This document shows, one piece after another, positions 317-36,550 of a stretch of DNA of 39,704 nucleotides. Location of the stretch: the sequence record MN510331.1. One strand, 5' to 3'. A program made the position numbers and the translations under genes. Positions within the stretch are counted from its first letter, which is position 1. Each line of letters begins with the position of its first letter. Under the pieces are notes generated by a model. It saw nothing but the letters and a program-made list of their open reading frames with translations, searched no databases and was not told the DNA's origin. This DNA comes from Escherichia phage vB_EcoP_PR_Kaz2018.

Positions 317-567
317 AATAGACACAAAGGTATAGACTTAAGGTCTAAGACATGTTAGTCAAAGACTATATCCTCTTACACCAAGGGGCCGACGATAGCT
401 TAATCAATATTATTTCAAATTACCTATTGACTACAGGTCCAGACTATGGCTTAATAGCTTCCGTCAACACGACACGGCAACAACCGGATAGTGAAGACGC
501 CTGGTCATCCAGGTTAAGTAGACAGCCTGATAAGTCATACGAACAACAGGCAGATGACAATAAGTAG

Positions 568-597
568 TTGACAAGATGTAACGATAAGATGTAAGCT
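568..597 (+). promoter_or_regulatory. Candidate host sigma70 early promoter (TTGACA, 18-nt spacer, TAAGCT)
   Basis: Perfect -35 TTGACA at 568..573 and TAAGCT at 592..597; spacer resembles the T7 A2/A3 early promoters as I remember them. Confidence 0.4.
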
Positions 598-721
598 GTA
601 CCACATCGAAACAACGGTGATGACCAACACTGAAATGGTCTACCTGAAGTCCTCTGACTGAAGGGAATGCTCTTTAACAATCTGGATAAACTCTTAATGT
701 GCGCCGATAGCGACTAACTAC

Positions 722-767
722 AGGGCCTTTGAGTCTACATCTGAAGGCCCTGACTGATAGTCACTAA
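722..767 (+). promoter_or_regulatory. Early intergenic element, copy 1: hairpin plus TGACTGATAGTCACTAA box; putative RNase III site
   Basis: 8-bp stem AGGGCCUU/AAGGCCCU (722..729 with 744..751), then the box at 751..767, directly upstream of a gene start. Confidence 0.45.
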
Positions 768-784
768 CTTAAAGGATGAACACT

Positions 785-1030
785 ATGAAACACTTAAGCA
801 CAATCACTAATCACAATGAAGTATTCGTGAACACTAAAGGTTATGCGTGGATTCAGCTTAAAGAGATGAGAGGAGCGCGTCACCGTGTGGTAGTTCGCAA
901 GGTCTCAAGCAAGCCGTTCAGCAACTACAGCGTAGATACTGTGCGTATAGACAACGAGACCTACCTGATAGATTCGCAGATAACCGTGAGTCCTACAGCG
1001 GGCGTCTCAGCTCCTTATTTCGCTAACTGA
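785..1030 (+). CDS. Hypothetical early protein (about 81 aa)
   Basis: ORF track 776..1030; AAGGA at 772..776 favours the second in-frame ATG at 785; no family recognised. Confidence 0.6.
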   Translation: MKHLSTITNHNEVFVNTKGYAWIQLKEMRGARHRVVVRKVSSKPFSNYSVDTVRIDNETYLIDSQITVSPTAGVSAPYFAN

Positions 1031-1043
1031 GAGTGATTAACTA

Positions 1044-1084
1044 CAGGTCGTTAGACTTATAGCGGCCTGACTGATAGTCACTAA
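1044..1084 (+). promoter_or_regulatory. Early intergenic element, copy 2; putative RNase III site
   Basis: 7-bp stem CAGGUCG/CGGCCUG (1044..1050 with 1063..1069) followed by TGACTGATAGTCACTAA at 1068..1084. Confidence 0.45.
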
Positions 1085-1113
1085 CACATACTTAACTTTG
1101 AGAGGATATAACT

Positions 1114-1623
1114 ATGGAACGTAACGCTAACGCATACTATGAGCTGCTGGCTGCAACCGTTGAGCTGTTCAATGAGCGTATTCAGTACGACGAAATAGCT
1201 GAAGGCGATGACTACTATGATGCGCTGCATGAGGTCGTAGACGGTCAGGTTCCGCACTATTACCACGATATTTTTACGGTGATGGCTGCTGATGGTATAG
1301 ACCACGAGTTCGAAGACTCTGGGCTGATGCCTGAAACCAAGGACGTAACGCGTATACTACAAGCTCGCATCTATGAGGCACTGTATAACGATGTGTCTAA
1401 TAGCTCTGAGGTGGTCTGGTTTGAGGCTGAAGAGGAAGACGAAAAGGCTGAATATTGGGTAGTTGACACTAGAACAGGCGAGATAATTGAGGCAGCTGTA
1501 TCACTTTACGAGGCTATTGCATGTGCAAAAGAACTCTATGAGGAAGGTTTTCACATGCAGGTCGAAGACATCAACGATAACGTAGTGTTCGATCCTGCGG
1601 CTGCTGAGGAGGACTGCGAGTGA
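1114..1623 (+). CDS. 0.3: Ocr-like anti-restriction DNA-mimic protein with a ~55-aa C-terminal extension
   Basis: Residues ~20-105 align with remembered T7 Ocr ([43 protein letters not shown]); strongly acidic; RBS GAGAGGA upstream. Confidence 0.9.
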
Positions 1624-1772
1624 TGGTAACTTATGGTCTCTGCCAGCACCACGTCACCAACGCCAGGCTTATGGTCAAGACCGGGCGATTAAACCACGAG
1701 GAGTCTATGCGTCTCTTGAAAGTGGTCTACAGGAGACGCAAGCGCATACACGACAGCTTACACGCTAAGTGA
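1623..1772 (+). CDS. Hypothetical small basic protein (49 aa)
   Basis: ATG overlaps the ocr stop (TGATG); GAGGAGGA at 1606..1613; below the 60-aa cutoff of the ORF track. Confidence 0.35.
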   Translation: MVTYGLCQHHVTNARLMVKTGRLNHEESMRLLKVVYRRRKRIHDSLHAK

Positions 1773-1779
1773 TAGACTA

Positions 1780-1820
1780 CAGGTCATCGAATGCTAGGTG
1801 GCCTGACTGATAGTCACTAA
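1780..1820 (+). promoter_or_regulatory. Early intergenic element, copy 3; putative RNase III site
   Basis: 7-bp stem CAGGUCA/UGGCCUG followed by TGACTGATAGTCACTAA at 1804..1820. Confidence 0.45.
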
Positions 1821-1839
1821 AACTGATAGGGGTTAACTA

Positions 1840-2007
1840 ATGAAATTTACAATCATCGCACTTTACATCGCCAGCATTCTGTCATGGCTAACTGCGGTCA
1901 TAGTCGATGGGAATGCACTACGTCTTGGCTGGCTGGCAGTGGACATAATATTCTCTCCGGTAGGGATCGTGCGCGGTCTACTGATGTGGATTGGACTGGC
2001 GGGATAA
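1840..2007 (+). CDS. Hypothetical small membrane protein (55 aa)
   Basis: Hand-translated MKFTIIALYIASILSWLTAVIVDGNALRLGWLAVDIIFSPVGIVRGLLMWIGLAG; two hydrophobic segments; follows element copy 3. Confidence 0.45.
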   Translation: MKFTIIALYIASILSWLTAVIVDGNALRLGWLAVDIIFSPVGIVRGLLMWIGLAG

Positions 2008-2010
2008 TCT

Positions 2011-2208
2011 ATGAGTCTTGCACTATTGATAGCCATAGGCTATGGACTTATCACCTACGTGCTGGTGAGAGACATCGACAAAGCGCGTAAAGTCTACAAA
2101 TTCAACTATGTACGTCTGGGCCGCTGGACTGTACGTCAACCTAACGGACGATTCATGCGCAACTTAGCGAACGTCTGGGACATAGCAACTATTGGGAGTA
2201 AACTGTAA
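2011..2208 (+). CDS. Hypothetical small protein with N-terminal hydrophobic helix (65 aa)
   Basis: ORF track; starts 3 nt after the preceding stop, suggesting translational coupling. Confidence 0.45.
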   Translation: MSLALLIAIGYGLITYVLVRDIDKARKVYKFNYVRLGRWTVRQPNGRFMRNLANVWDIATIGSKL

Positions 2209-2288
2209 TGAAAACCGTATACATTAACAAGCCATCTATCCGTTAGCCGTATAGAGCAATACAGCGTGACGTGTTCTTACATAGTCGC

Positions 2289-2468
2289 ATGAAGGCTGAG
2301 GGCCATAAGTCCGAACTGATGTGTCTGGCGTATGGTGGACGACCGATCACTGACGATGGTAGACTTTTAGTCTCAGGCTGGAAGGCGATAGACCAACGGT
2401 CAACCATCAAGCACACGACTCATGGTGACTTCAGTCATCTTCACGCTAACCCACTGATATGCAAGTAA
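2289..2468 (+). CDS. Hypothetical protein (59 aa from the internal ATG)
   Basis: ORF track 2271..2468 starts on GTG; first ATG at 2289; no clear RBS. Confidence 0.25.
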   Translation: MKAEGHKSELMCLAYGGRPITDDGRLLVSGWKAIDQRSTIKHTTHGDFSHLHANPLICK

Positions 2469-2473
2469 TTATG

Positions 2474-2496
2474 ACTTAACTATCACTATAGGACTC
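2474..2496 (+). promoter_or_regulatory. Phage-RNAP promoter upstream of the RNA polymerase gene
   Basis: ACTTAACTATCACTATA-GGACTC, +1 G at 2491; same core as the ten other copies. Confidence 0.7.
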
Positions 2497-2565: not shown

Positions 2566-5247
2566 ATGAGCGTCATCTCTATTGATAAACACGACTTCTC
2601 TGATGTGTCGAACGCCATTGAGCCGTTTAACCTGCTGGCCGACCACTACGGGCAAGATCTTGCAGTCAAACAGCTTCAGCTTGAGCATGAGGCATACACT
2701 GAAGGCGAGCGACGTTTCATCAAGAACCTTGAGCGACAGACTGAGCGCGGGGAACTGGCAGACAATCAGGTCGCCAAGCCTTTGATGCAGACTCTGGTCC
2801 CTAAGATTGCGCAAGCCGTCAAGGAGTGGCACGAAGGTCCAGACGGGAAGCTGTCAACCTCTCGTCCTAGCGTAGCGTTCACCATGTTGAGCACTGAAGA
2901 GAAGGCCGTCAAGGACCGCTCACTGCGTATCTCTTGCGAGTCTGCTGCGGTCATCATACTGAAGGTCATACTCTCCAAGCTGGTCAAGCCTGAGGGGATA
3001 CCAATTACACCGATGGCTTCCGCGATAGGTCGCACACTTGAGGATGAAATCCGCTTCGGTCGCATCCGTGACAAGGAGAAGGAGCACTTCAAGAAGGCGA
3101 TAGCTGAGAACCTGAACAAGCGAGCTGGGGTATCCTACAAAAAAGCCTACATGCAAGCGGTTGAGACCTCCATGTTGGAGCAAGGACAACTTGAAGATGC
3201 GTGGGGAACTTGGAGTCCTACAGAGGCTGTCCACGTTGGCATCAAGATGCTTGAGATTGTCATCCAGTCAACACAACTGGTAGAGCTTAAGCGGTACGGT
3301 GCTGGCAATGCAGCGGCTGACGTAGAGATGGTCCACCTGTCAGACTTCTGGGTCAAGAAGATGGCACAACGAGGATTCAGCCTTGCGGGTATCGCTCCAG
3401 TCTACCAGCCTTGCGTCGTTCCACCTAAGCCGTGGACTGGTGTCGTAGGTGGCGGGTACTGGGCCAAAGGTCGCAGACCGCTGCCCCTGATTCGCTTAGG
3501 GTCTAAATCAGCGGTGGCACGTTATGAAGACGTATACATGCCTGAAGTCTATGACGCTGTGAATATCATCCAGAATACACCTTGGAAAGTGAACAAGAAG
3601 GTTCTAGACGTGGTGAACATGGTCGAGAAGCTGAACAACACGCCTATTGATGACATCCCTCAGATGGAACCGCTGAAGCCTGAAGACTATGCGGGTGAGA
3701 CTGAAGAGGAACTCAAGGCATGGAAGAAGGCTGCTGCTGGTATCTACCGCCGAGAGAAGGCCCGGCAGTCACGCAGATTGTCACTGAGCTTTATCGTTAA
3801 CCAAGCGAACAAGTTCTCTCAGTTCAAGGCCATCTGGTTCCCGTACAACATGGACTGGCGCGGTCGCGTCTACGCTGTGCCGATGTTCAACCCTCAGGGT
3901 AACGACATGCAGAAGGGTCTCCTGACTCTGGCAGTCGGTAAGCCTATTGGTGCTGACGGTTTCAAATGGCTGAAGGTCCATGGTGCAAACTGCGCGGGTG
4001 TTGATAAAGTCACCTTCGAGGAGCGCATCAAGTGGGTGGAAGACAACCACGAAAACATCATGGCTGCTGCTAAGGCACCGATGGATAGTATTGAGTGGTG
4101 GGGCAAGTTAGACTCTCCGTTCTGCTTCCTTGCGTTCTGCTTCGAGTATGCTGGTGTAATGCACCACGGATTGTCTTACTCCTGCTCACTGCCGATAGCG
4201 TTCGATGGGTCATGCTCAGGGATTCAGCACTTTAGCGCGATGCTTCGTGATCACATCGGTGGACATGCAGTAAACCTAACGCCTTCCGGTAAGGTCCAAG
4301 ACATCTACCGAATCGTGTCCGACCGCATTGAGGGAGAGCTTAAAGTCCTGCTGGTTAACGGCACGGACAACGAGATGGTAACTCACGAGGACAAGAAAAC
4401 TGGTGAGATTACCGAACGCCTCAAGCTGGGGACACGAGAGCTGGCCCGGCAGTGGCTGACTTACGGCATGTCACGCAAGGTCACTAAGCGTTCAGTAATG
4501 ACTCTGGCCTATGGGTCGAAAGAGTACGGCTTCGCAGACCAAGTTTATGAGGACATCGTGATGCCAGCGATTGACTCAGGGTCTGGCGCTATGTTCACCG
4601 AACCAAGCCAAGCGTCCCGCTTCATGGCTAAGATGATTTGGGAAGCTGTGAGCGTGACCGTAGTTGCTGCGGTTGACGCGATGAAGTGGCTTCAGGGTGC
4701 TGCCAAGCTGCTGGCTGCTGAAGTGAAGGACAAGAAGACTGGAGAAATCCTGAAGCCTTGCCTTCCGGTACACTGGGTAACACCTGATGGTTTCCCGGTC
4801 TGGCAGGAATACCGCAAGAAGGATACCACTCGTCTGAACCTGATGTTCTTAGGGTCATTCAACCTTCAACCTACGGTCAACAAAGGCACGAAGAAAGAGC
4901 TTGACAAGCACAAGCAGGAGTCAGGCATTAGCCCGAACTTCGTCCACTCACAAGATGGTAGCCACCTCCGCAAGACTGTAGTCCACACGCATCGCAAGTA
5001 TGGCGTGATGTCATTCGCAGTGATTCATGATAGCTTCGGGACCATCCCGGCTGACGCTGAACATCTGTTCCGTGGTGTCCGTGAGACGATGGTCGAGACC
5101 TACCGCGACAACGATGTGCTGCTTGACTTCTACGAGCAGTTTGAATACCAGCTTCATGAGAGCCAGCGCGACAAGTTGCCTGAGCTTCCGAAGAAAGGTA
5201 AACTGAATATCGAAGACATCTTGTCTTCAGACTTTGCATTCGCTTAA
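2566..5247 (+). CDS. 1: Single-subunit DNA-directed RNA polymerase (893 aa)
   Basis: Colinear with remembered T7 RNAP over the whole length (e.g. FPYNMDWRGRVYAV, HGANCAGVDKV, DGSCSGIQHFSAMLRD, IHDSFGT, ending SDFAFA). Confidence 0.98.
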   Translation: MSVISIDKHDFSDVSNAIEPFNLLADHYGQDLAVKQLQLEHEAYTEGERRFIKNLERQTERGELADNQVAKPLMQTLVPKIAQAVKEWHEGPDGKLSTSRPSVAFTMLSTEEKAVKDRSLRISCESAAVIILKVILSKLVKPEGIPITPMASAIGRTLEDEIRFGRIRDKEKEHFKKAIAENLNKRAGVSYKKAYMQAVETSMLEQGQLEDAWGTWSPTEAVHVGIKMLEIVIQSTQLVELKRYGAGNAAADVEMVHLSDFWVKKMAQRGFSLAGIAPVYQPCVVPPKPWTGVVGGGYWAKGRRPLPLIRLGSKSAVARYEDVYMPEVYDAVNIIQNTPWKVNKKVLDVVNMVEKLNNTPIDDIPQMEPLKPEDYAGETEEELKAWKKAAAGIYRREKARQSRRLSLSFIVNQANKFSQFKAIWFPYNMDWRGRVYAVPMFNPQGNDMQKGLLTLAVGKPIGADGFKWLKVHGANCAGVDKVTFEERIKWVEDNHENIMAAAKAPMDSIEWWGKLDSPFCFLAFCFEYAGVMHHGLSYSCSLPIAFDGSCSGIQHFSAMLRDHIGGHAVNLTPSGKVQDIYRIVSDRIEGELKVLLVNGTDNEMVTHEDKKTGEITERLKLGTRELARQWLTYGMSRKVTKRSVMTLAYGSKEYGFADQVYEDIVMPAIDSGSGAMFTEPSQASRFMAKMIWEAVSVTVVAAVDAMKWLQGAAKLLAAEVKDKKTGEILKPCLPVHWVTPDGFPVWQEYRKKDTTRLNLMFLGSFNLQPTVNKGTKKELDKHKQESGISPNFVHSQDGSHLRKTVVHTHRKYGVMSFAVIHDSFGTIPADAEHLFRGVRETMVETYRDNDVLLDFYEQFEYQLHESQRDKLPELPKKGKLNIEDILSSDFAFA

Positions 5248-5551: not shown

Positions 5552-5574
5552 CCTAAACTATCACTATAGGATTA
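5552..5574 (+). promoter_or_regulatory. Phage-RNAP promoter
   Basis: CCTAAACTATCACTATA-GGATTA, +1 G at 5569. Confidence 0.8.
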
Positions 5575-5616
5575 GACTCAAGGTCATGACTCAAAGTCGT
5601 GGCCTTCATGATTAAC
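5573..5616 (+). promoter_or_regulatory. Late-type hairpin element (TAGACTCAAGGTCAT ... GTGGCCTTCATGATTAAC); putative RNase III site
   Basis: 8-bp stem AAGGUCAU (5580..5587) with GUGGCCUU (5599..5606); same element at 12860..12900 and 36453..36496. Confidence 0.5.
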
Positions 5617-5647
5617 CCTAACTAATCAATACAGGAGCTTTAACACC

Positions 5648-5832: not shown

Positions 5833-6096
5833 ATGGGCCGACTTTATAGTGGCAACCTCAACGCTTTCAGAGCAGCGTGTAACAGGCTCTACCAGTTAGA
5901 CTTCTGCGTGATACAGCAGGAGGTACGAGGCCATCTGTCTCGGAAAGAGTGCATGAGACTTCAAGTCGAGGACCGAGCCGGTAACATCTTCGCGCTTGAG
6001 ACCTTCGCACACTACGATGAAGACGTGCTGTATAATACTGCAACAGACTACCTCAACGGTCTCGCTGACCATATCGACACATGGAGCAAAGCATAA
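5833..6096 (+). CDS. 1.2: gp1.2-like protein (dGTPase inhibitor family)
   Basis: MGRLYSGNLNAFRAA...IEDR..G....FAHYDEDVLYN aligns along its length with remembered T7 gp1.2. Confidence 0.9.
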   Translation: MGRLYSGNLNAFRAACNRLYQLDFCVIQQEVRGHLSRKECMRLQVEDRAGNIFALETFAHYDEDVLYNTATDYLNGLADHIDTWSKA

Positions 6097-9259: not shown

Positions 9260-9711
9260 TGGCCCAATGGTCTGCAAAACGGGGGCACTCTGTGGGTGCC
9301 TACCGCTCTGGACTTGAAGCCAAGAACCAGCAGTGGCTGGAACATAACGGCGTCAAAGCGGAGTACGAAAGCCATTATATCAACTATGTGATTCCGGCTT
9401 CCGACCACAAGTACACACCAGATTTTATTCTTCCTAACGGTATTATCGTGGAGACCAAAGGTATCTTCGCAGTGGATGACCGTAAGAAGCATCTTCTGGT
9501 ACGAGAACAGCATCCAGAGTTAGACATCCGGTTCGTGTTCTCAAGTTCCCGCTCCAAGCTATACAAAGGGTCTCCTACCACGTATGGCGCATGGTGCGAA
9601 AAGAACGGCTTTAAGTATGCCGATAAATTCATCCCTGTTGAGTGGCTGCGAGAGGCGACTGTACGTCTGCCCTCAGGTATACTCATCCCGAAGAAAGGAG
9701 TTAAGAAATGA
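9259..9711 (+). CDS. 3: Endonuclease I (Holliday-junction resolvase)
   Basis: YVIPASDHKYTPDF, VETKG, DDRKKHLLVREQHPELDIRFVFSSSRSKLYKGSPTTYG match T7 gp3. Confidence 0.95.
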   Translation: MAQWSAKRGHSVGAYRSGLEAKNQQWLEHNGVKAEYESHYINYVIPASDHKYTPDFILPNGIIVETKGIFAVDDRKKHLLVREQHPELDIRFVFSSSRSKLYKGSPTTYGAWCEKNGFKYADKFIPVEWLREATVRLPSGILIPKKGVKK

Positions 9712-10178
9712 GCAAGCAGTTTAAACTGTTAAGTGCTGAGTGTGGCTGGCCTTGTGGGACTATCGTTACCCAGTGTGAGAAGGACCCCCAGCCAGCGATA
9801 GGAATGATTCTAGTTGAGTGCCAGACTCCAGGCACCTACAAACACGGGTCTAAAGGCCACAATACGCAACCTGAGGGAATGTGGGGAGCGTGGGTCTGTA
9901 CTGAACGCCTTGAAGAAATCAAGACAGAAGAGAAACACCAAGTCCTGCCAACTTCGAGCGTACCTCCTGTGACTGTGAAGCGTGAAGTCCTGACCATTGA
10001 TAAAATCCCGGTAGGCTATGCGTTTATCGTCCACGGTAAGCCGGGTGAAGTGTACGTGAAGATTAGTAACTCTCACGTCTTCAACCATAAGTTACTCCAG
10101 ATGCACACCACCGGATGCACACCGCTTCCAACGTCATCTGAACCTCGTAGCTGTAGAGCTGGTGGTGTACAATGGTGA
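9708..10178 (+). CDS. Hypothetical Cys-rich protein (156 aa)
   Basis: ORF track; strong RBS AAAGGAG; start overlaps the gene 3 stop (ATGA); no counterpart in T7 as I recall. Confidence 0.7.
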   Translation: MSKQFKLLSAECGWPCGTIVTQCEKDPQPAIGMILVECQTPGTYKHGSKGHNTQPEGMWGAWVCTERLEEIKTEEKHQVLPTSSVPPVTVKREVLTIDKIPVGYAFIVHGKPGEVYVKISNSHVFNHKLLQMHTTGCTPLPTSSEPRSCRAGGVQW

Positions 10179-10935: not shown

Positions 10936-12856
<1,921 letters not shown>

Positions 12857-12859
12857 GTC

Positions 12860-12900
12860 TAGACTCAAGGTCATTCATAGCGAGTGGCCTTTATGATTAG
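12860..12900 (+). promoter_or_regulatory. Late-type hairpin element, copy 2; putative RNase III site (T7 R4.7 position)
   Basis: TAGACTCAAGGTCAT ... GTGGCCTTTATGATTAG; stem 12867..12874 with 12884..12891. Confidence 0.5.
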
Positions 12901-12920
12901 ACTAAAGCGGAGGATTAACC

Positions 12921-14936
12921 ATGTTTGACCTTAAGAGTATCTGGGGTTCTGACATCGAGACCAACGGTCTCCTTGATACAGTCTCCCAGTTTCACTGTGG
13001 GGTCCTGATTAACGCCGAGTCGAATGAGACCCTTAAGTATGGGGTAGCTCCGATGGTCGGTATCGTCGGCGGCTTCAAAGAGTATGTTCATAAAGTGGAA
13101 GAGATTGCCGCATCACCTGATGGTATGCTGGTATTCCATAACGGTATCAACTATGACGTCCCGTCTATAGACAAGCTGAAGCGTTTGTACTTTGGGAAAC
13201 GCTTTAACTTCCCGAAACATAAGATGATTGATACCTTGGTGCTGGGACGCTTGATGTATCCAAACATTAAGTTCTCAGACATGGGCGCGGTGAAAGCTGG
13301 TCGTCTGCCACCTAAGATGATGGGACGCCAGTCTCTTGAGGCTTGGGGCTATCGTCTCGGTGAGATGAAAGGTGAGTACAAACACGATTACGTTGCCAAG
13401 TGCAAGGCTGAAGGTATCGAATATAAGGCTGGGGACGAATGGTTGTTCCCGTCTCAGGAGATGCTGGACTATAACGTTCAAGACGTTGTGGTCACACTGG
13501 CGTTGTTCAAGAAGTTCCTGACTGACAAGTATTACTTCCAGTCTGAACAGTTCGCTTTCGACCAGATTTATGCGTTGCGTCTGGAACATGATGCTGCGTG
13601 GACCTGTGCGAAGATGGAGCGTAACGGCTATCCGATGAACACCGAGATGGTCGAAGGCTTATATCGTGAACTCACTGTCAAACGTGCAGAGTTGCTGGAC
13701 AAGCTGCGTTCGACTTTCGGTAGCTGGTACGCACCAAAGGGAGGCAAGGAGTTCTTCAGGCATCCACGGACAGGTAAGGACCTTCCGAAGTATCCGAGGG
13801 TCGTGTATCCTAAGGTCGGTGGCATCTTTAAGAAGCCGAAGAACAAAGCTCAACGCTTATGTCTTGAACCTTGTGAACGCGATACGCGAGACACGATGGA
13901 AGGAGCACCATTCACGCCAATCACTTACGTTGAGTTTAATCCGGGAAGCGGAGACCACTTAGCGAAAGTCCTGATGGAGCGTGGCTGGGAGCCTGTTGAC
14001 TTCACTGACACCGGGAAACCTGTAGTCGATGACGAGACGTTGGAACACGTTAAGTTACCAGACGCAGAGGCTCAGGCTTGCGTAGAGCTGGTCCGTGAGT
14101 ATCTGGTAGTCCAGAAGCGCATCGGACAGGCTGCTGAAGGTAAGAACGCATGGTTGAAACTTGTAGGTCCAGACGGACGTATGCACGGTTCAATCAACCC
14201 TTGTGGAGCAGTAACCGGACGTGCGACCCATAGTTCACCAAACATGGCTCAGGTCCCGGCTAACGGTGCTCCGTATGGTGAGACTTGCCGTGGTGCTTTC
14301 GGTGCAGCGTGGAACAAGAAGGATGGCAAGCCAGACCCTTGGATTCAAGTAGGTGTGGATGCTTCAGGTCTTGAGCTTCGTTGTCTGGGGAACCGTGCGT
14401 CTCCGTTCGATGGTGGCGAATACGCGAAGACTGTGGTCGAAGGTGACATCCACTGGGCCAATGCGGTCAACGCAGGGTTAGCACCTAACGTCCCACGCGA
14501 TAAGTCTAACCACGACCATGAGGCTTTCCGCAACAACGCCAAGACGTTCATCTATGCGTTCCTGTATGGTGCAGGGGCCGCTAAGATTGGACTGATAGTT
14601 GGCGGTGGTAAGAAGGAAGGTTCAGCTCTCATGAAGAAATTCATTGAGGGTACACCAGCCATCAAGGACCTCAGGGAAGCTGTGAGTAATACGTTAATAT
14701 CAGACTCTAAGTGGGTGGACGGAGAGAACATCGTCAAGTGGAAACGCCGTTGGCTGCGTGGACTTGATGGTCGTCGTATCCACATCCGGTCCCCGCACTC
14801 AGCACTTAACGCCCTACTTCAGGGTGACGGTGCGGTGGTCTGTAAGCACTGGATAGTCGAGACCGAGCGTATGCTTGAAGAAGCTGGCTATGTCCACGGC
14901 TGGGAAGGTGACTTTGCGTACATGGCTTGGGTTCAT
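12921..14936 (+). CDS. 5: DNA polymerase, exon 1 (672 codons)
   Basis: Colinear with T7 gp5 from the 3'-5' exonuclease domain to ...GDFAYMAWVH; the ORF then hits TAA where T7 continues DEIQ... Confidence 0.95.
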
Positions 14937-15534
14937 TAACATCATGGTGCACATTAAATCTGGTGAACTCGGTGAACTCCTAATGGGACAATACCGAGCC
15001 AAGCCATAGGGAGGATGTATGAGAGGCAAGAAGTTAATTCTTGAGGCCACTGAGACTGGCTGCATAATCCCTACGTCACATAAATTGAATCAGGATGGAT
15101 ACTTCCGAAAGAGGACTAACGGTGTCCTTGAGATGTATCATAGAACTGTATGGATTAAAGCTAATGGTCCAATACCTGAAGGTTTCGAAGTAGACCACAA
15201 GTGTCGTAATAGAGCTTGTTGCAACGTCGAACATCTACAAGTATTAGACCGTGACTCACACTTAGTCAAGACCAACCAAGAGCGATACGCTGCTAGGAAG
15301 CTAGAAGCACGAGACTACTGGGTAGAGACTGGGTGTACAGGAACGAAGTTAGCCGAAGTATTCAATGTGTCGTTCTCAGCCGCCTGTGGGTGGATTAGAG
15401 AGTGGAAGGCGTAGAGACTATCCGAAAGGAGTAGGGCCGTGGGTGAGATTCCCACGTAACCCGAAGCGCCAGACAGTCACCTCAAAGACTGATGATATAG
15501 TCCGACACTTCCAGTAATGGGAGAATACAGAAAG
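14937..15534 (+). mobile_element. Group I intron in the DNA polymerase gene, containing an HNH endonuclease ORF
   Basis: 5' exon ends in U (14936) and intron ends in G (15534); candidate guide sequence GUGAAC (14963..14968 or 14972..14977) pairs with exon GUUCAU with a U-G wobble; flanking exons rejoin in frame. Confidence 0.8.
15019..15414 (+). CDS. HNH homing endonuclease encoded within the intron
   Basis: Motif EVDHKCRNRACCNVEHLQVLDRDSH is a His-Asn-His metal-finger signature; RBS GGGAGG upstream. Confidence 0.85.
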   Translation: MRGKKLILEATETGCIIPTSHKLNQDGYFRKRTNGVLEMYHRTVWIKANGPIPEGFEVDHKCRNRACCNVEHLQVLDRDSHLVKTNQERYAARKLEARDYWVETGCTGTKLAEVFNVSFSAACGWIREWKA

Positions 15535-15690
15535 GATGAGCTGCAAATTGCGTGTCGTACTCAGGAGATTGCCGAAGAAGTCGTCAAGATTGCTCAACTT
15601 GCTATGCGTAAGGTGGGCGAGTTCTATAACTTTAAATGCGTCCTTGACACCGAAGGGAAGATTGGACCAACGTGGAAGGAGTGCCACTAA
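15535..15690 (+). CDS. 5: DNA polymerase, exon 2 (51 codons plus stop)
   Basis: Hand-translated DELQIACRTQEIAEEVVKIAQLAMRKVGEFYNFKCVLDTEGKIGPTWKECH matches the remembered T7 gp5 C-terminus. Confidence 0.85.
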   Translation, partial: DELQIACRTQEIAEEVVKIAQLAMRKVGEFYNFKCVLDTEGKIGPTWKECH

Positions 15691-36188: not shown

Positions 36189-36448
36189 CGCAGATGGACT
36201 TAGAGAAGTTCCTCTTGATGCTTGATACTGAGCGTGCTCGACTTATGCTGCAAGACTTGCGGGATGACACTAAGCGTTCACCTCAGCTCTACAACGCCAT
36301 TGAGAAGCTGCTTGCTCGTCACAACTTTGTGTTAAGCAAGGTGTCTGTTGACGAGAAGACGCTGGCTGATATGGAGGCCCTGAACGCAGAGTACGATAAG
36401 GTGCTCTCAGCTACGGAAGATAATGACACCGGGTATGGTGTTCAATAA
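36185..36448 (+). CDS. 18: Terminase small subunit
   Basis: LLMLDTERARLMLQDL.D..RSPQLYNAIEKLLARH matches T7 gp18; position before Rz and terminase large. Confidence 0.9.
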   Translation: MTQMDLEKFLLMLDTERARLMLQDLRDDTKRSPQLYNAIEKLLARHNFVLSKVSVDEKTLADMEALNAEYDKVLSATEDNDTGYGVQ

Positions 36449-36452
36449 GTGT

Positions 36453-36496
36453 TAGACTCAAGGTCATTACTATATGTAGTGGCCTTTATGGTTAAC
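36453..36496 (+). promoter_or_regulatory. Late-type hairpin element, copy 3; putative RNase III site (T7 R18.5 position)
   Basis: TAGACTCAAGGTCAT ... GTGGCCTTTATGGTTAAC; stem 36460..36467 with 36479..36486. Confidence 0.5.
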
Positions 36497-36550
36497 ACTA
36501 ACTAGTGGAGGCGACTCTACGTGAAAATCTGATAAACCGGGAGGGCAACT

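Follow-up and report, generated by a model that had tools for sequence, protein, structure and literature searches.

The early operon of a K1F-type Kayfunavirus and its peptide gp0.35, a probable relative of T7 Gp0.4 and candidate FtsZ inhibitor

The early protein Gp0.4 of bacteriophage T7 is an inhibitor of FtsZ, reportedly described by Kiro et al. in 2013; it binds monomeric FtsZ(L178E) with a Kd of 382 nM, and ftsZ9 is an allele that confers resistance to it. Gp0.4 has been modelled with AlphaFold3 as two antiparallel helices, its toxicity is lost with each of the substitutions V15A, V22A, W28A, M32A, L35A and Y39A, and its binding to FtsZ is lost with W28L and L35P (PMC13423816). Infection with coliphage K1F also mislocalises FtsZ, blocks division and filaments cells as T7 does, with a multi-ring phenotype (Dhanoa et al. 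2022, PMC9372555). The authors of that study stated that the 0.4 genes are missing from K1F, obtained no similarity by BLAST, described the responsible peptide as 'currently unknown' and proposed a novel K1F inhibitor (PMC9372555). The gp0.7 kinases, in turn, have been described as broad anti-defence factors that act via phosphorylation (PMC13645617, PMC12345140). Here we analyse positions 785 to 2468 of a 39,704-base sequence of Escherichia phage vB_EcoP_PR_Kaz2018 (MN510331.1; its whole length is referred to as the window), a region of small early genes which lies left of the gene for the phage RNA polymerase (RNAP) and which includes ocr and, directly behind it, the gene for the 49-residue peptide gp0.35.

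The window is colinear with K1F (DQ111067/NC_007456; Kayfunavirus, Studiervirinae), with which it shares its length and 95-96.5% identity; over the first 6.2 kb the two are set apart by 322 substitutions and by no insertion or deletion (~95% identity). The differences look like natural variation; in the RNAP gene they are mostly synonymous, with 128 of the 138 on third codon positions. In the database searched, no record reaches 99% identity to the window. The K1F record AM084414 annotates gp0.1, gp0.2, gp0.3, gp0.35, gp0.36, gp0.37 and gp0.38 at identical coordinates, DQ111067 does so in part, and the early proteins of the window are 84-100% identical to these annotated counterparts. The early genes of the region have thus been in the public annotation of K1F since 2005, and the region is an ordinary early operon of the T7 group. 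We consider it quite likely that 785-2468 is the class I operon of a K1F-type Kayfunavirus, that is, one transcribed by the host RNAP, with gp0.35 as a diverged FtsZ inhibitor of the Gp0.4 type. What is new is the place of gp0.35 in the Gp0.4 family, which databases already group under one entry (PF26807), and its likely identity with the FtsZ inhibitor of K1F.

gp0.35 and the Gp0.4 family

The open reading frame (ORF) of gp0.35 (1623..1772, plus strand) encodes a basic peptide with an isoelectric point (pI) of 11.0 that belongs to phrog_5058 (E 2e-24), and it is the same family that T7 Gp0.4 matches at E 9e-5. The two peptides are 37% identical in pairwise alignment over 41 residues, and hhalign of 23 gp0.35-type against 19 Gp0.4-type sequences aligns 40 columns with E 2.5e-6 and a probability of 88.8%, around a shared core of the form YGL...V...MV..G...AM..LK..Y..K. 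Precomputed PF26807.1 assignments are carried by 63/63 of the gp0.35-type and by 43/43 of the Gp0.4-type homologue clusters. The genetic setting agrees as well. The start codon of gp0.35 overlaps the stop codon of ocr (gagTGATGg) behind a GAGGAGG, as it does in T7 (gagTAATGt) with the same Shine-Dalgarno sequence; this GAGGAGG falls inside the coding sequence of the acidic ocr tail, the final base of the ocr stop codon is at the same time the first of the 0.4-type gene, and a hairpin of the R0.5 type follows gp0.35 just as one follows T7 gene 0.4. Finally, AlphaFold2 models gp0.35 from its family alignment as a two-helix hairpin (helices 8-20 and 25-47) with a mean predicted local distance difference test score, pLDDT, of 91.8. 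Judged by these sequence and model comparisons, gp0.35 is very probably a diverged, remote homologue of T7 Gp0.4.

Has gp0.35 also kept the activity of Gp0.4? Of the six residues of Gp0.4 that contact FtsZ five are identical in gp0.35, V15, V22, M32, L35 and Y39 corresponding to V11, V18, M29, L32 and Y36, and within the gp0.35 family these five positions show little or no variation. This leads us to favour, with some reserve, the view that FtsZ inhibition has been retained. The two-helix hairpin of gp0.35 would then bind the synergy-loop face of FtsZ and stop assembly of the Z-ring, and this action would explain why K1F infection leads to filamentation and to multiple rings. As a member of the Gp0.4 family in a phage with an FtsZ phenotype but without a named peptide, gp0.35 is the obvious candidate for the K1F inhibitor, and it likely is the one listed as unknown in the K1F literature, in which we found no later paper that names an FtsZ inhibitor of this phage. 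K1F serves as a model in phage therapy of E. coli K1, and a specific candidate of 49 residues can now be named for its effect on FtsZ.

Several observations speak against this assignment. The sixth contact residue of Gp0.4, the essential W28, of which both W28L and W28A do away with FtsZ binding and toxicity, aligns with His25, which is invariant in the gp0.35 family, and gp0.35 has a strongly basic C-terminal helix (RRRKRIH, pI 11.0) as compared to the acidic T7 Gp0.4 (pI 4.7). gp0.35 gave no reciprocal match to phrog_7202, the family of the T7 protein itself, at E ≤0.01, the hhalign probability of 89% stays below 95%, fold matches in BFVD outside the gp0.35 family are marginal (E 0.03-0.6), and T7 is missing from the tblastn matches of gp0.35 in phage genomes even at E ≤1, which reproduces the BLAST failure reported in PMC9372555.

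Divergence is also seen on the surface by which Gp0.4 is sensed. The residues of Gp0.4 in contact with the defence protein CapRel-Ebc, A12, T14, L16, S19 and R23, align with Q8, H10, T12, R15 and K19 of gp0.35, so that four of the five contacts are changed outright and only that of R23 to lysine is conservative. Sensing of gp0.35 by CapRel-Ebc is therefore doubtful. The pair gp0.35 and T7 Gp0.4 may thus be seen as a natural experiment on which residues serve the binding of FtsZ and which serve detection by CapRel-Ebc.

Two alternatives deserve to be weighed at this point. The first extends the original prediction and holds that novel, unrelated genes have replaced T7 genes 0.4-0.7 and serve host take-over or anti-defence, thereby compensating for the missing kinase. 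It fits gp0.2, gp0.36, gp0.37 and gp0.38, which have no detectable similarity to T7 early proteins or to annotated families and for which the proposed search for remote homologies gave no functional match, but it does not fit the 49-residue peptide, which the same kind of search linked to T7 Gp0.4 and which occupies the Gp0.4 position. As to compensation, a phage without a kinase may rely on other tools, given that gp0.7 kinases are broad anti-defence factors (PMC13645617, PMC12345140), and gp0.2, which is common to N4-like and other phages, behaves like a mobile accessory gene; yet no PADLOC-related matches were obtained, and gp0.37 and gp0.38 occur together with a gp0.7-type kinase in the Kayfunaviruses ST29 and Pisces, as gp0.37 does in a Berlinvirus. 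This co-occurrence argues against substitution, and gp0.38 in particular is for this reason not a replacement of the kinase. We regard the replacement of the whole 0.4-0.7 block by unrelated genes as possible but doubtful.

The second alternative accepts the descent of gp0.35 from Gp0.4 but holds that the peptide no longer targets FtsZ and may have acquired another target, such as nucleic acid or a different host protein, via its basic helix, in which case the FtsZ phenotype of K1F would have to be due to gp0.36, gp0.37, gp0.38 or gp0.2. The exchange of the essential W28 for histidine can be read in this way, but His25 is itself invariant, as a functional contact would be. Likewise, the reversal of charge (pI 11.0 versus 4.7) and the altered CapRel-Ebc contacts bespeak substantial surface divergence. 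Five of the six positions of the FtsZ interface, on the other hand, are identical and vary little or not at all within the family. A disturbance of the divisome by small membrane peptides, gp0.36 and gp0.37 among them, is plausible; however, no product other than gp0.35 is linked to a known division inhibitor, and the FtsZ phenotype does occur with K1F. Retargeting appears unlikely to us, and we retain gp0.35 as the candidate FtsZ inhibitor.

The small early genes and the absence of a gp0.7-type kinase

The region contains six ORFs on the plus strand: 785-1030 (81 residues, gp0.2), 1114-1623 (169 residues, ocr or gp0.3), 1623-1772 (49 residues, gp0.35), 1840-2007 (55 residues, gp0.36), 2011-2208 (65 residues, gp0.37) and 2289-2468 (59 residues). 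All had been listed in the original prediction, and the listing holds, including the extra 81-residue gene upstream of ocr; only the possible 59-residue ORF loses its standing as a gene of its own, as set out below. Every early ORF matches a PHROG family, the small ones with E 1e-24 to 1e-41, and all of these families except that of ocr are listed with unknown function. In a tblastn search of 50,697 phage genomes, homologues were found in 118 records for gp0.2, 167 for gp0.35, 50 for gp0.36, 225 for gp0.37 and 223 for gp0.38, mostly over the full length and at 55-98% identity. A recognisable Shine-Dalgarno sequence precedes five of the six ORFs, the exception being gp0.37. Because of the PHROG matches, the wide conservation and the presence of either a Shine-Dalgarno sequence or a coupled stop and start codon, the small early ORFs are to be taken, on sequence criteria, as real genes and not as products of chance. 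Minus-strand ORFs (e.g. 1081-1305 and 1863-2036) were set aside, since they lie opposite conserved genes of the plus strand and the phage is transcribed from one strand.

One may still ask whether the small ORFs, in part or altogether, are unexpressed products of chance that are kept only through conservation of the underlying DNA or RNA. They are very short and proteomic evidence was not found, but their conservation is that of full-length proteins (55-98% identity in 50 to 225 genomes, in distant phage families in the case of gp0.2), with conserved residue patterns, confident structure models, Shine-Dalgarno sites and coupled stop and start codons. gp0.2 and gp0.38 are unannotated in DQ111067, and gp0.38 is interrupted both there and in the window; in the independent K1F sequence AM084414, however, gp0.38 is intact. 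An origin by chance is highly improbable on these grounds.

As to function, local searches of the region and its small ORFs with Pfam, NCBIfam, PADLOC, PDB sequences and Rfam matched ocr only, the local Pfam copy being one without PF26807. In the accessible literature we found no experimental function for any of the small early ORFs and no paper on gp0.35-0.38, so that the original description of them as uncharacterised stands in this sense, although gp0.2 and gp0.35-gp0.38 were already annotated in AM084414. A depletion of serine, threonine and tyrosine, as reported for early proteins of kinase-bearing phages (PMC13645617), gave no signal in the small early proteins (0.154 versus 0.157 for T7). 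Roles in host take-over or anti-defence are a reasonable expectation for genes in such a position.

The first of them, gp0.2 (785..1030), encodes a basic protein (pI 9.7; phrog_10124, E 1e-40) and has the Shine-Dalgarno sequence AAAGGA 8 nt upstream. Its homologues, among the 118 records, include Klebsiella T7-like phages, N4-like phages of 70 kb and one phage of 151 kb; those of the 70-kb N4-like coliphages lie near the left ends of the genomes, and identities in these phages and in the 151-kb phage range from 36 to 74%. In its distribution gp0.2 resembles a mobile accessory gene that moves between unrelated phage families. The family shows the conserved pattern KGYAW...VRKV.SK.FSN.S..TVRI....YL.DS; no match was found in Pfam, NCBIfam, PADLOC or PDB, and a comparison with 1.8 billion representative proteins gave 13 matches, the large ones being unrelated repeat proteins (SH3_5, Muc_B2, LVIVD). 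The resemblance to SH3_5 is weak and probably compositional or spurious.

Ocr (gp0.3; 1114..1623) is the one product of the region with an established family function. Pfam PF08684, for which the cut-off is 25 bits, matches residues 7-99 with 111.1 bits (E 4.2e-32), the protein belongs to phrog_2568 (E 2e-56) and it is 54% identical to the T7 DNA mimic. With 169 residues as compared to the 117 of T7 Ocr it carries a C-terminal extension of about 50 residues beyond the ocr domain. As in T7, it would be expected to block type I restriction and BREX.

gp0.36 (1840..2007; phrog_7319, E 5e-25) and gp0.37 (2011..2208; phrog_2385, E 4e-31; '0.6' in DQ111067) are both predicted to be small membrane proteins, the former a two-pass peptide with two hydrophobic segments and the latter with an N-terminal transmembrane helix and a basic tail. 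The slot of gp0.36 is variable: the gene occurs in only 50 phage records, and LM33_P1 and ST29 have other small hydrophobic peptides in its place. gp0.37 is preceded by a weak GCGGGA only and starts 3 nt past the stop codon of gp0.36, to which it is probably translationally coupled; a homologue with 44% identity lies directly upstream of the kinase in the Berlinvirus PYps50T. No cross-matches of PHROG families connect gp0.36 and gp0.37 with T7 gp0.5 and gp0.6, and blastp between them gives E ≥0.3.

The 59-residue ORF at 2289-2468 is, from its sequence, the C-terminal two thirds of gp0.38 (2208..2468; phrog_7066, E 1e-35), a protein of 86 residues if intact, and not a separate gene. The ATG of gp0.38 at 2208 overlaps the stop codon of gp0.37. 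Alignment with AM084414, Esher7 and LM33_P1 shows that the window and DQ111067 have an extra T at about 2243/2244 and lack an A some 15 nt further on, at about 2258/2259, which creates an in-frame TAG (2244-2246) before the frame is restored. AM084414 and Esher7 have an intact gp0.38 of 86 or 108 residues, as do upwards of 200 further genomes; 211 of the 223 phage records have it at full length, all 114 homologue clusters (114/114) are 83-110 residues long and the N-terminal part lost here is conserved, the fragment in the window covering positions 26-95 of the 95 in the phrog_7066 profile. Since the independent sequence of K1F, AM084414, has neither indel, the two are most simply read as a sequencing error in DQ111067. 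AlphaFold2 models gp0.38 with three helices and a highly conserved C-terminal tail of low confidence. Fold searches (BFVD, PDB) and sequence searches returned the gp0.38 family itself, save for a 41% identical T7-like phage protein of Citrobacter phage CR8 (E 3e-3), and a zinc or His-Cys site was dropped as the cysteines are not conserved. The neighbourhood of gp0.38 is visited by homing endonucleases in related phages: MirsaeidiM_Esher7 carries a gene of 150 codons for an endonuclease VII/HNH homing endonuclease (2322-2774) between gp0.37 and gp0.38, and IMM-002 has an endonuclease VII annotation at the equivalent spot.

That the region has no room for a gp0.7 kinase was a central claim of the original prediction, and it was borne out. 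To the left of the RNAP gene no ORF is larger than ocr with its 169 residues, and tblastn of the whole window with T7 gp0.7 and with the kinase of the Kayfunavirus ST29 gave best E-values of 0.72 and 2.2, respectively. Nor was a kinase found elsewhere: a PHROG scan of ten genes that are unknown or unannotated in the K1F records gave a gp1.7-type nucleotide kinase as the sole kinase-like match. By these searches, a gp0.7-type kinase is absent from the 39.7 kb, and this phage would therefore have neither the host shut-off that depends on the kinase nor the phosphorylation with broad anti-defence effect described in PMC13645617 and PMC12345140. We give next to no credence to a kinase function that resides at another locus or in a non-homologous protein, for although a kinase of new fold could escape sequence searches and a 156-residue ORF (9708-10175) and several small ORFs are without function, two divergent gp0.7 kinases find nothing, the only kinase-like PHROG match is the gp1.7 nucleotide kinase and all large ORFs are standard replication or structural genes of the T7 type.

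The absence is, however, not a property of the clade. gp0.7-type kinases are found in 908 phage records, and about 46 phage records have a kinase-only homologue of 243 residues with at least 80% identity to that of ST29. In ST29 and Pisces, the two inspected and both Kayfunaviruses, RNase III-type hairpins flank the kinase gene, which is located upstream of gp0.38 and the gene for RNAP, and in ST29 a recognisable gp0.37 stands between the kinase and gp0.38. By this comparison, presence of the kinase varies within the genus, and kinase-less and kinase-bearing Kayfunaviruses can be compared directly. Labels are not always a guide in this matter. 'Phage protein kinase' and 'protein kinase' in LM33_P1 (LT594300, 1121-1624) and CY1 (OM937123, 11665-11811) fall on ocr/gp0.35 and are misannotations, which could mislead automated surveys of kinase distribution, and JSS1_004 (mBio 2025) is not a characterised early protein of a Kayfunavirus but a gp0.7 homologue from a different, Salmonella phage also named JSS1.

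Predicted promoters, hairpins and a proposed exchange of cassettes

Transcription of the operon would start near 460 and 603, from two predicted sigma-70 promoters on the plus strand. The candidate at 427..455 resembles T7 A1 (TTGACT, 17 nt, CTTAAT; owing to its non-canonical -10 hexamer the consensus scan missed it), and that at 568..597 resembles T7 A2/A3 (TTGACA, 18 nt, TAAGCT, then GTACCACATCGAAAC), being near-identical in layout and downstream sequence to T7 A3 (TTGACA...TACGATGTACCACATGAAAC). The annotated gp0.1 ORF (352-567, 71 residues, phrog_30192) starts upstream of both and overlaps these T7-like host promoters, and is therefore doubtful as an expressed gene.

The transcript would then meet three RNase III-type hairpins. 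A 21-nt motif, GGCCTGACTGATAGTCACTAA, occurs in three copies in the whole window (747, 1064 and 1800), with none expected by chance, and each copy forms the 3' arm of a long irregular hairpin. The first of these, upstream of gp0.2 ('R0.2', 707..768), has a folding energy of -25.6 kcal/mol (z -3.7) and scores 62.8 bits (covariance model R1); the second, upstream of ocr and equivalent to T7 R0.3, with which it aligns (1030..1085), has -23.7 kcal/mol (z -4.4) and 66.9 bits (R1); and the third, equivalent to T7 R0.5 and nearly superimposable on it (1766..1821), has -21 kcal/mol (z -2.6) and 64.4 bits. All three lie on the plus strand and align with the T7 RNase III sites R0.3, R0.5 and R1. RNAalifold finds a consensus of 18 pairs (lower stem, internal loop, upper stem) in which compensatory changes occur at 9/18 pairs across the K1F and T7 sites. 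The covariance model, built from six sequences, namely the three hairpins of the window and T7 R0.3, R0.5 and R1, recovers the held-out T7 R1.1 at 40.8 bits and T7 R1.3 weakly. Cleavage by RNase III at the three hairpins is thus predicted, in the internal loops near 755, 1072 and 1808, and would divide the transcript into gp0.2, ocr with gp0.35, and gp0.36, gp0.37 and gp0.38 with the RNAP gene.

Three points count against this picture of the operon: a generic scan for sigma-70 promoters and terminators called neither early promoter, both being assigned solely through similarity to T7 A1 and A3; the prediction of cleavage likewise draws on similarity to T7 only; and gp0.38 is interrupted in the sequence of the window.

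At the right boundary of the region lies gene 1 (2566..5247, plus strand), an ORF of 893 residues annotated as RNA polymerase in K1F, for a single-subunit enzyme of the T7 type. Directly upstream of it stands the phage-RNAP promoter TTAACTATCACTATAGGAC (2474..2492, plus strand), the leftmost of nine matches to CACTATAG in the window, and the covariance model finds no RNase III hairpin between gp0.38 and gene 1. A phage promoter ahead of the gene for the phage's own RNAP suggests positive feedback on synthesis of the polymerase.

The hairpins also bear on how the region varies. LM33_P1 has exactly one extra unit of a hairpin and a gene of 75 codons, inserted at its R0.36 hairpin, the equivalent of 1766-1821 of the window, and we infer that the shared hairpin sequences are recombination joints for the exchange of cassettes. 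By comparison of these phages, accessory cassettes delimited by hairpins make up a variable array in the early region and precede a block of gp0.37, gp0.38 and the RNAP gene that is conserved, and the gp0.7 kinase is not among the cassettes in this lineage. A kinase that comes and goes as a hairpin-flanked cassette provides a context for the role of T7-type kinases as broad anti-defence weapons. A bolder version, which we put forward only tentatively, would hold that gp0.35 is a functional FtsZ inhibitor that has kept the FtsZ-binding face of Gp0.4 but evades immunity as its CapRel-Ebc-read surface has been replaced as a whole, that the cassettes exchanged at the shared hairpins comprise ocr or SAMase, a Gp0.4-like gene, the kinase, gp0.2 and small membrane peptides, and that gp0.2 and gp0.36-0.38 are take-over or counter-defence effectors. 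If it were true, gp0.35 would represent a form of a sensed phage effector that escapes immune detection.

Some further features of the genome may be mentioned. The substitutions between the window and K1F are patchy, and some patches are closer to other Kayfunaviruses than to K1F; gp0.35 of the window, for one, is 98% identical to the copy of phage Mt1B1_P3 and 84% to that of K1F. In the homologue of gp1.2, the dGTPase inhibitor (5833-6096), 21 of 87 residues are not those of K1F, a much greater divergence than in the neighbouring genes, and a recombinant patch seems to be at hand. In the DQ111067 annotation, the K1F gene for DNA polymerase (12921-15690) is assembled from two parts on either side of an ORF for a homing endonuclease (15019-15414). 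Further RNase III-type hairpins lie at 5566-5622, 12853-12906 and 36446-36502 (39.5-55 bits), the positions of T7 R1.1, R4.7 and R18.5.

Comparison with the early region of T7

The early regions of T7 and of this phage are laid out in parallel. The order in T7 is R0.3, genes 0.3-0.4, R0.5, genes 0.5 (double-hydrophobic)-0.6-0.7, R1 and gene 1, and the order here is a hairpin, gp0.2, a hairpin, gp0.3-gp0.35, a hairpin and gp0.36 (double-hydrophobic)-gp0.37-gp0.38-gene 1. The hairpins share with the T7 RNase III sites their lower stem, internal loop and upper stem, an alignable sequence and a place ahead of equivalent genes. In T7, the R1 site occupies the place upstream of gene 1 together with an E. 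coli promoter. Different from T7, this phage has an additional site and gene, gp0.2, before ocr, and it has a phage promoter instead of a site ahead of gene 1. gp0.36 is comparable to T7 gp0.5, a double-hydrophobic peptide of 47 residues, in that it is the first gene past the R0.5-type hairpin, is of similar size and has two hydrophobic segments, but it is without detectable sequence similarity and belongs to another PHROG. The gp0.7 kinases (T7K, JSS1_004) have no counterpart in the window, whereas a homologue of 243 residues that consists of the kinase domain only is present in the early operons of ST29 and Pisces. Finally, gp0.35 is like T7 Gp0.4 in being a peptide of about 50 residues, encoded right after ocr with overlapping stop and start codons and followed by an RNase III site, and in its predicted helical hairpin; it differs in that the two are only 37% identical, that W28 has given way to an invariant histidine and that its C-terminal helix is basic and not acidic.

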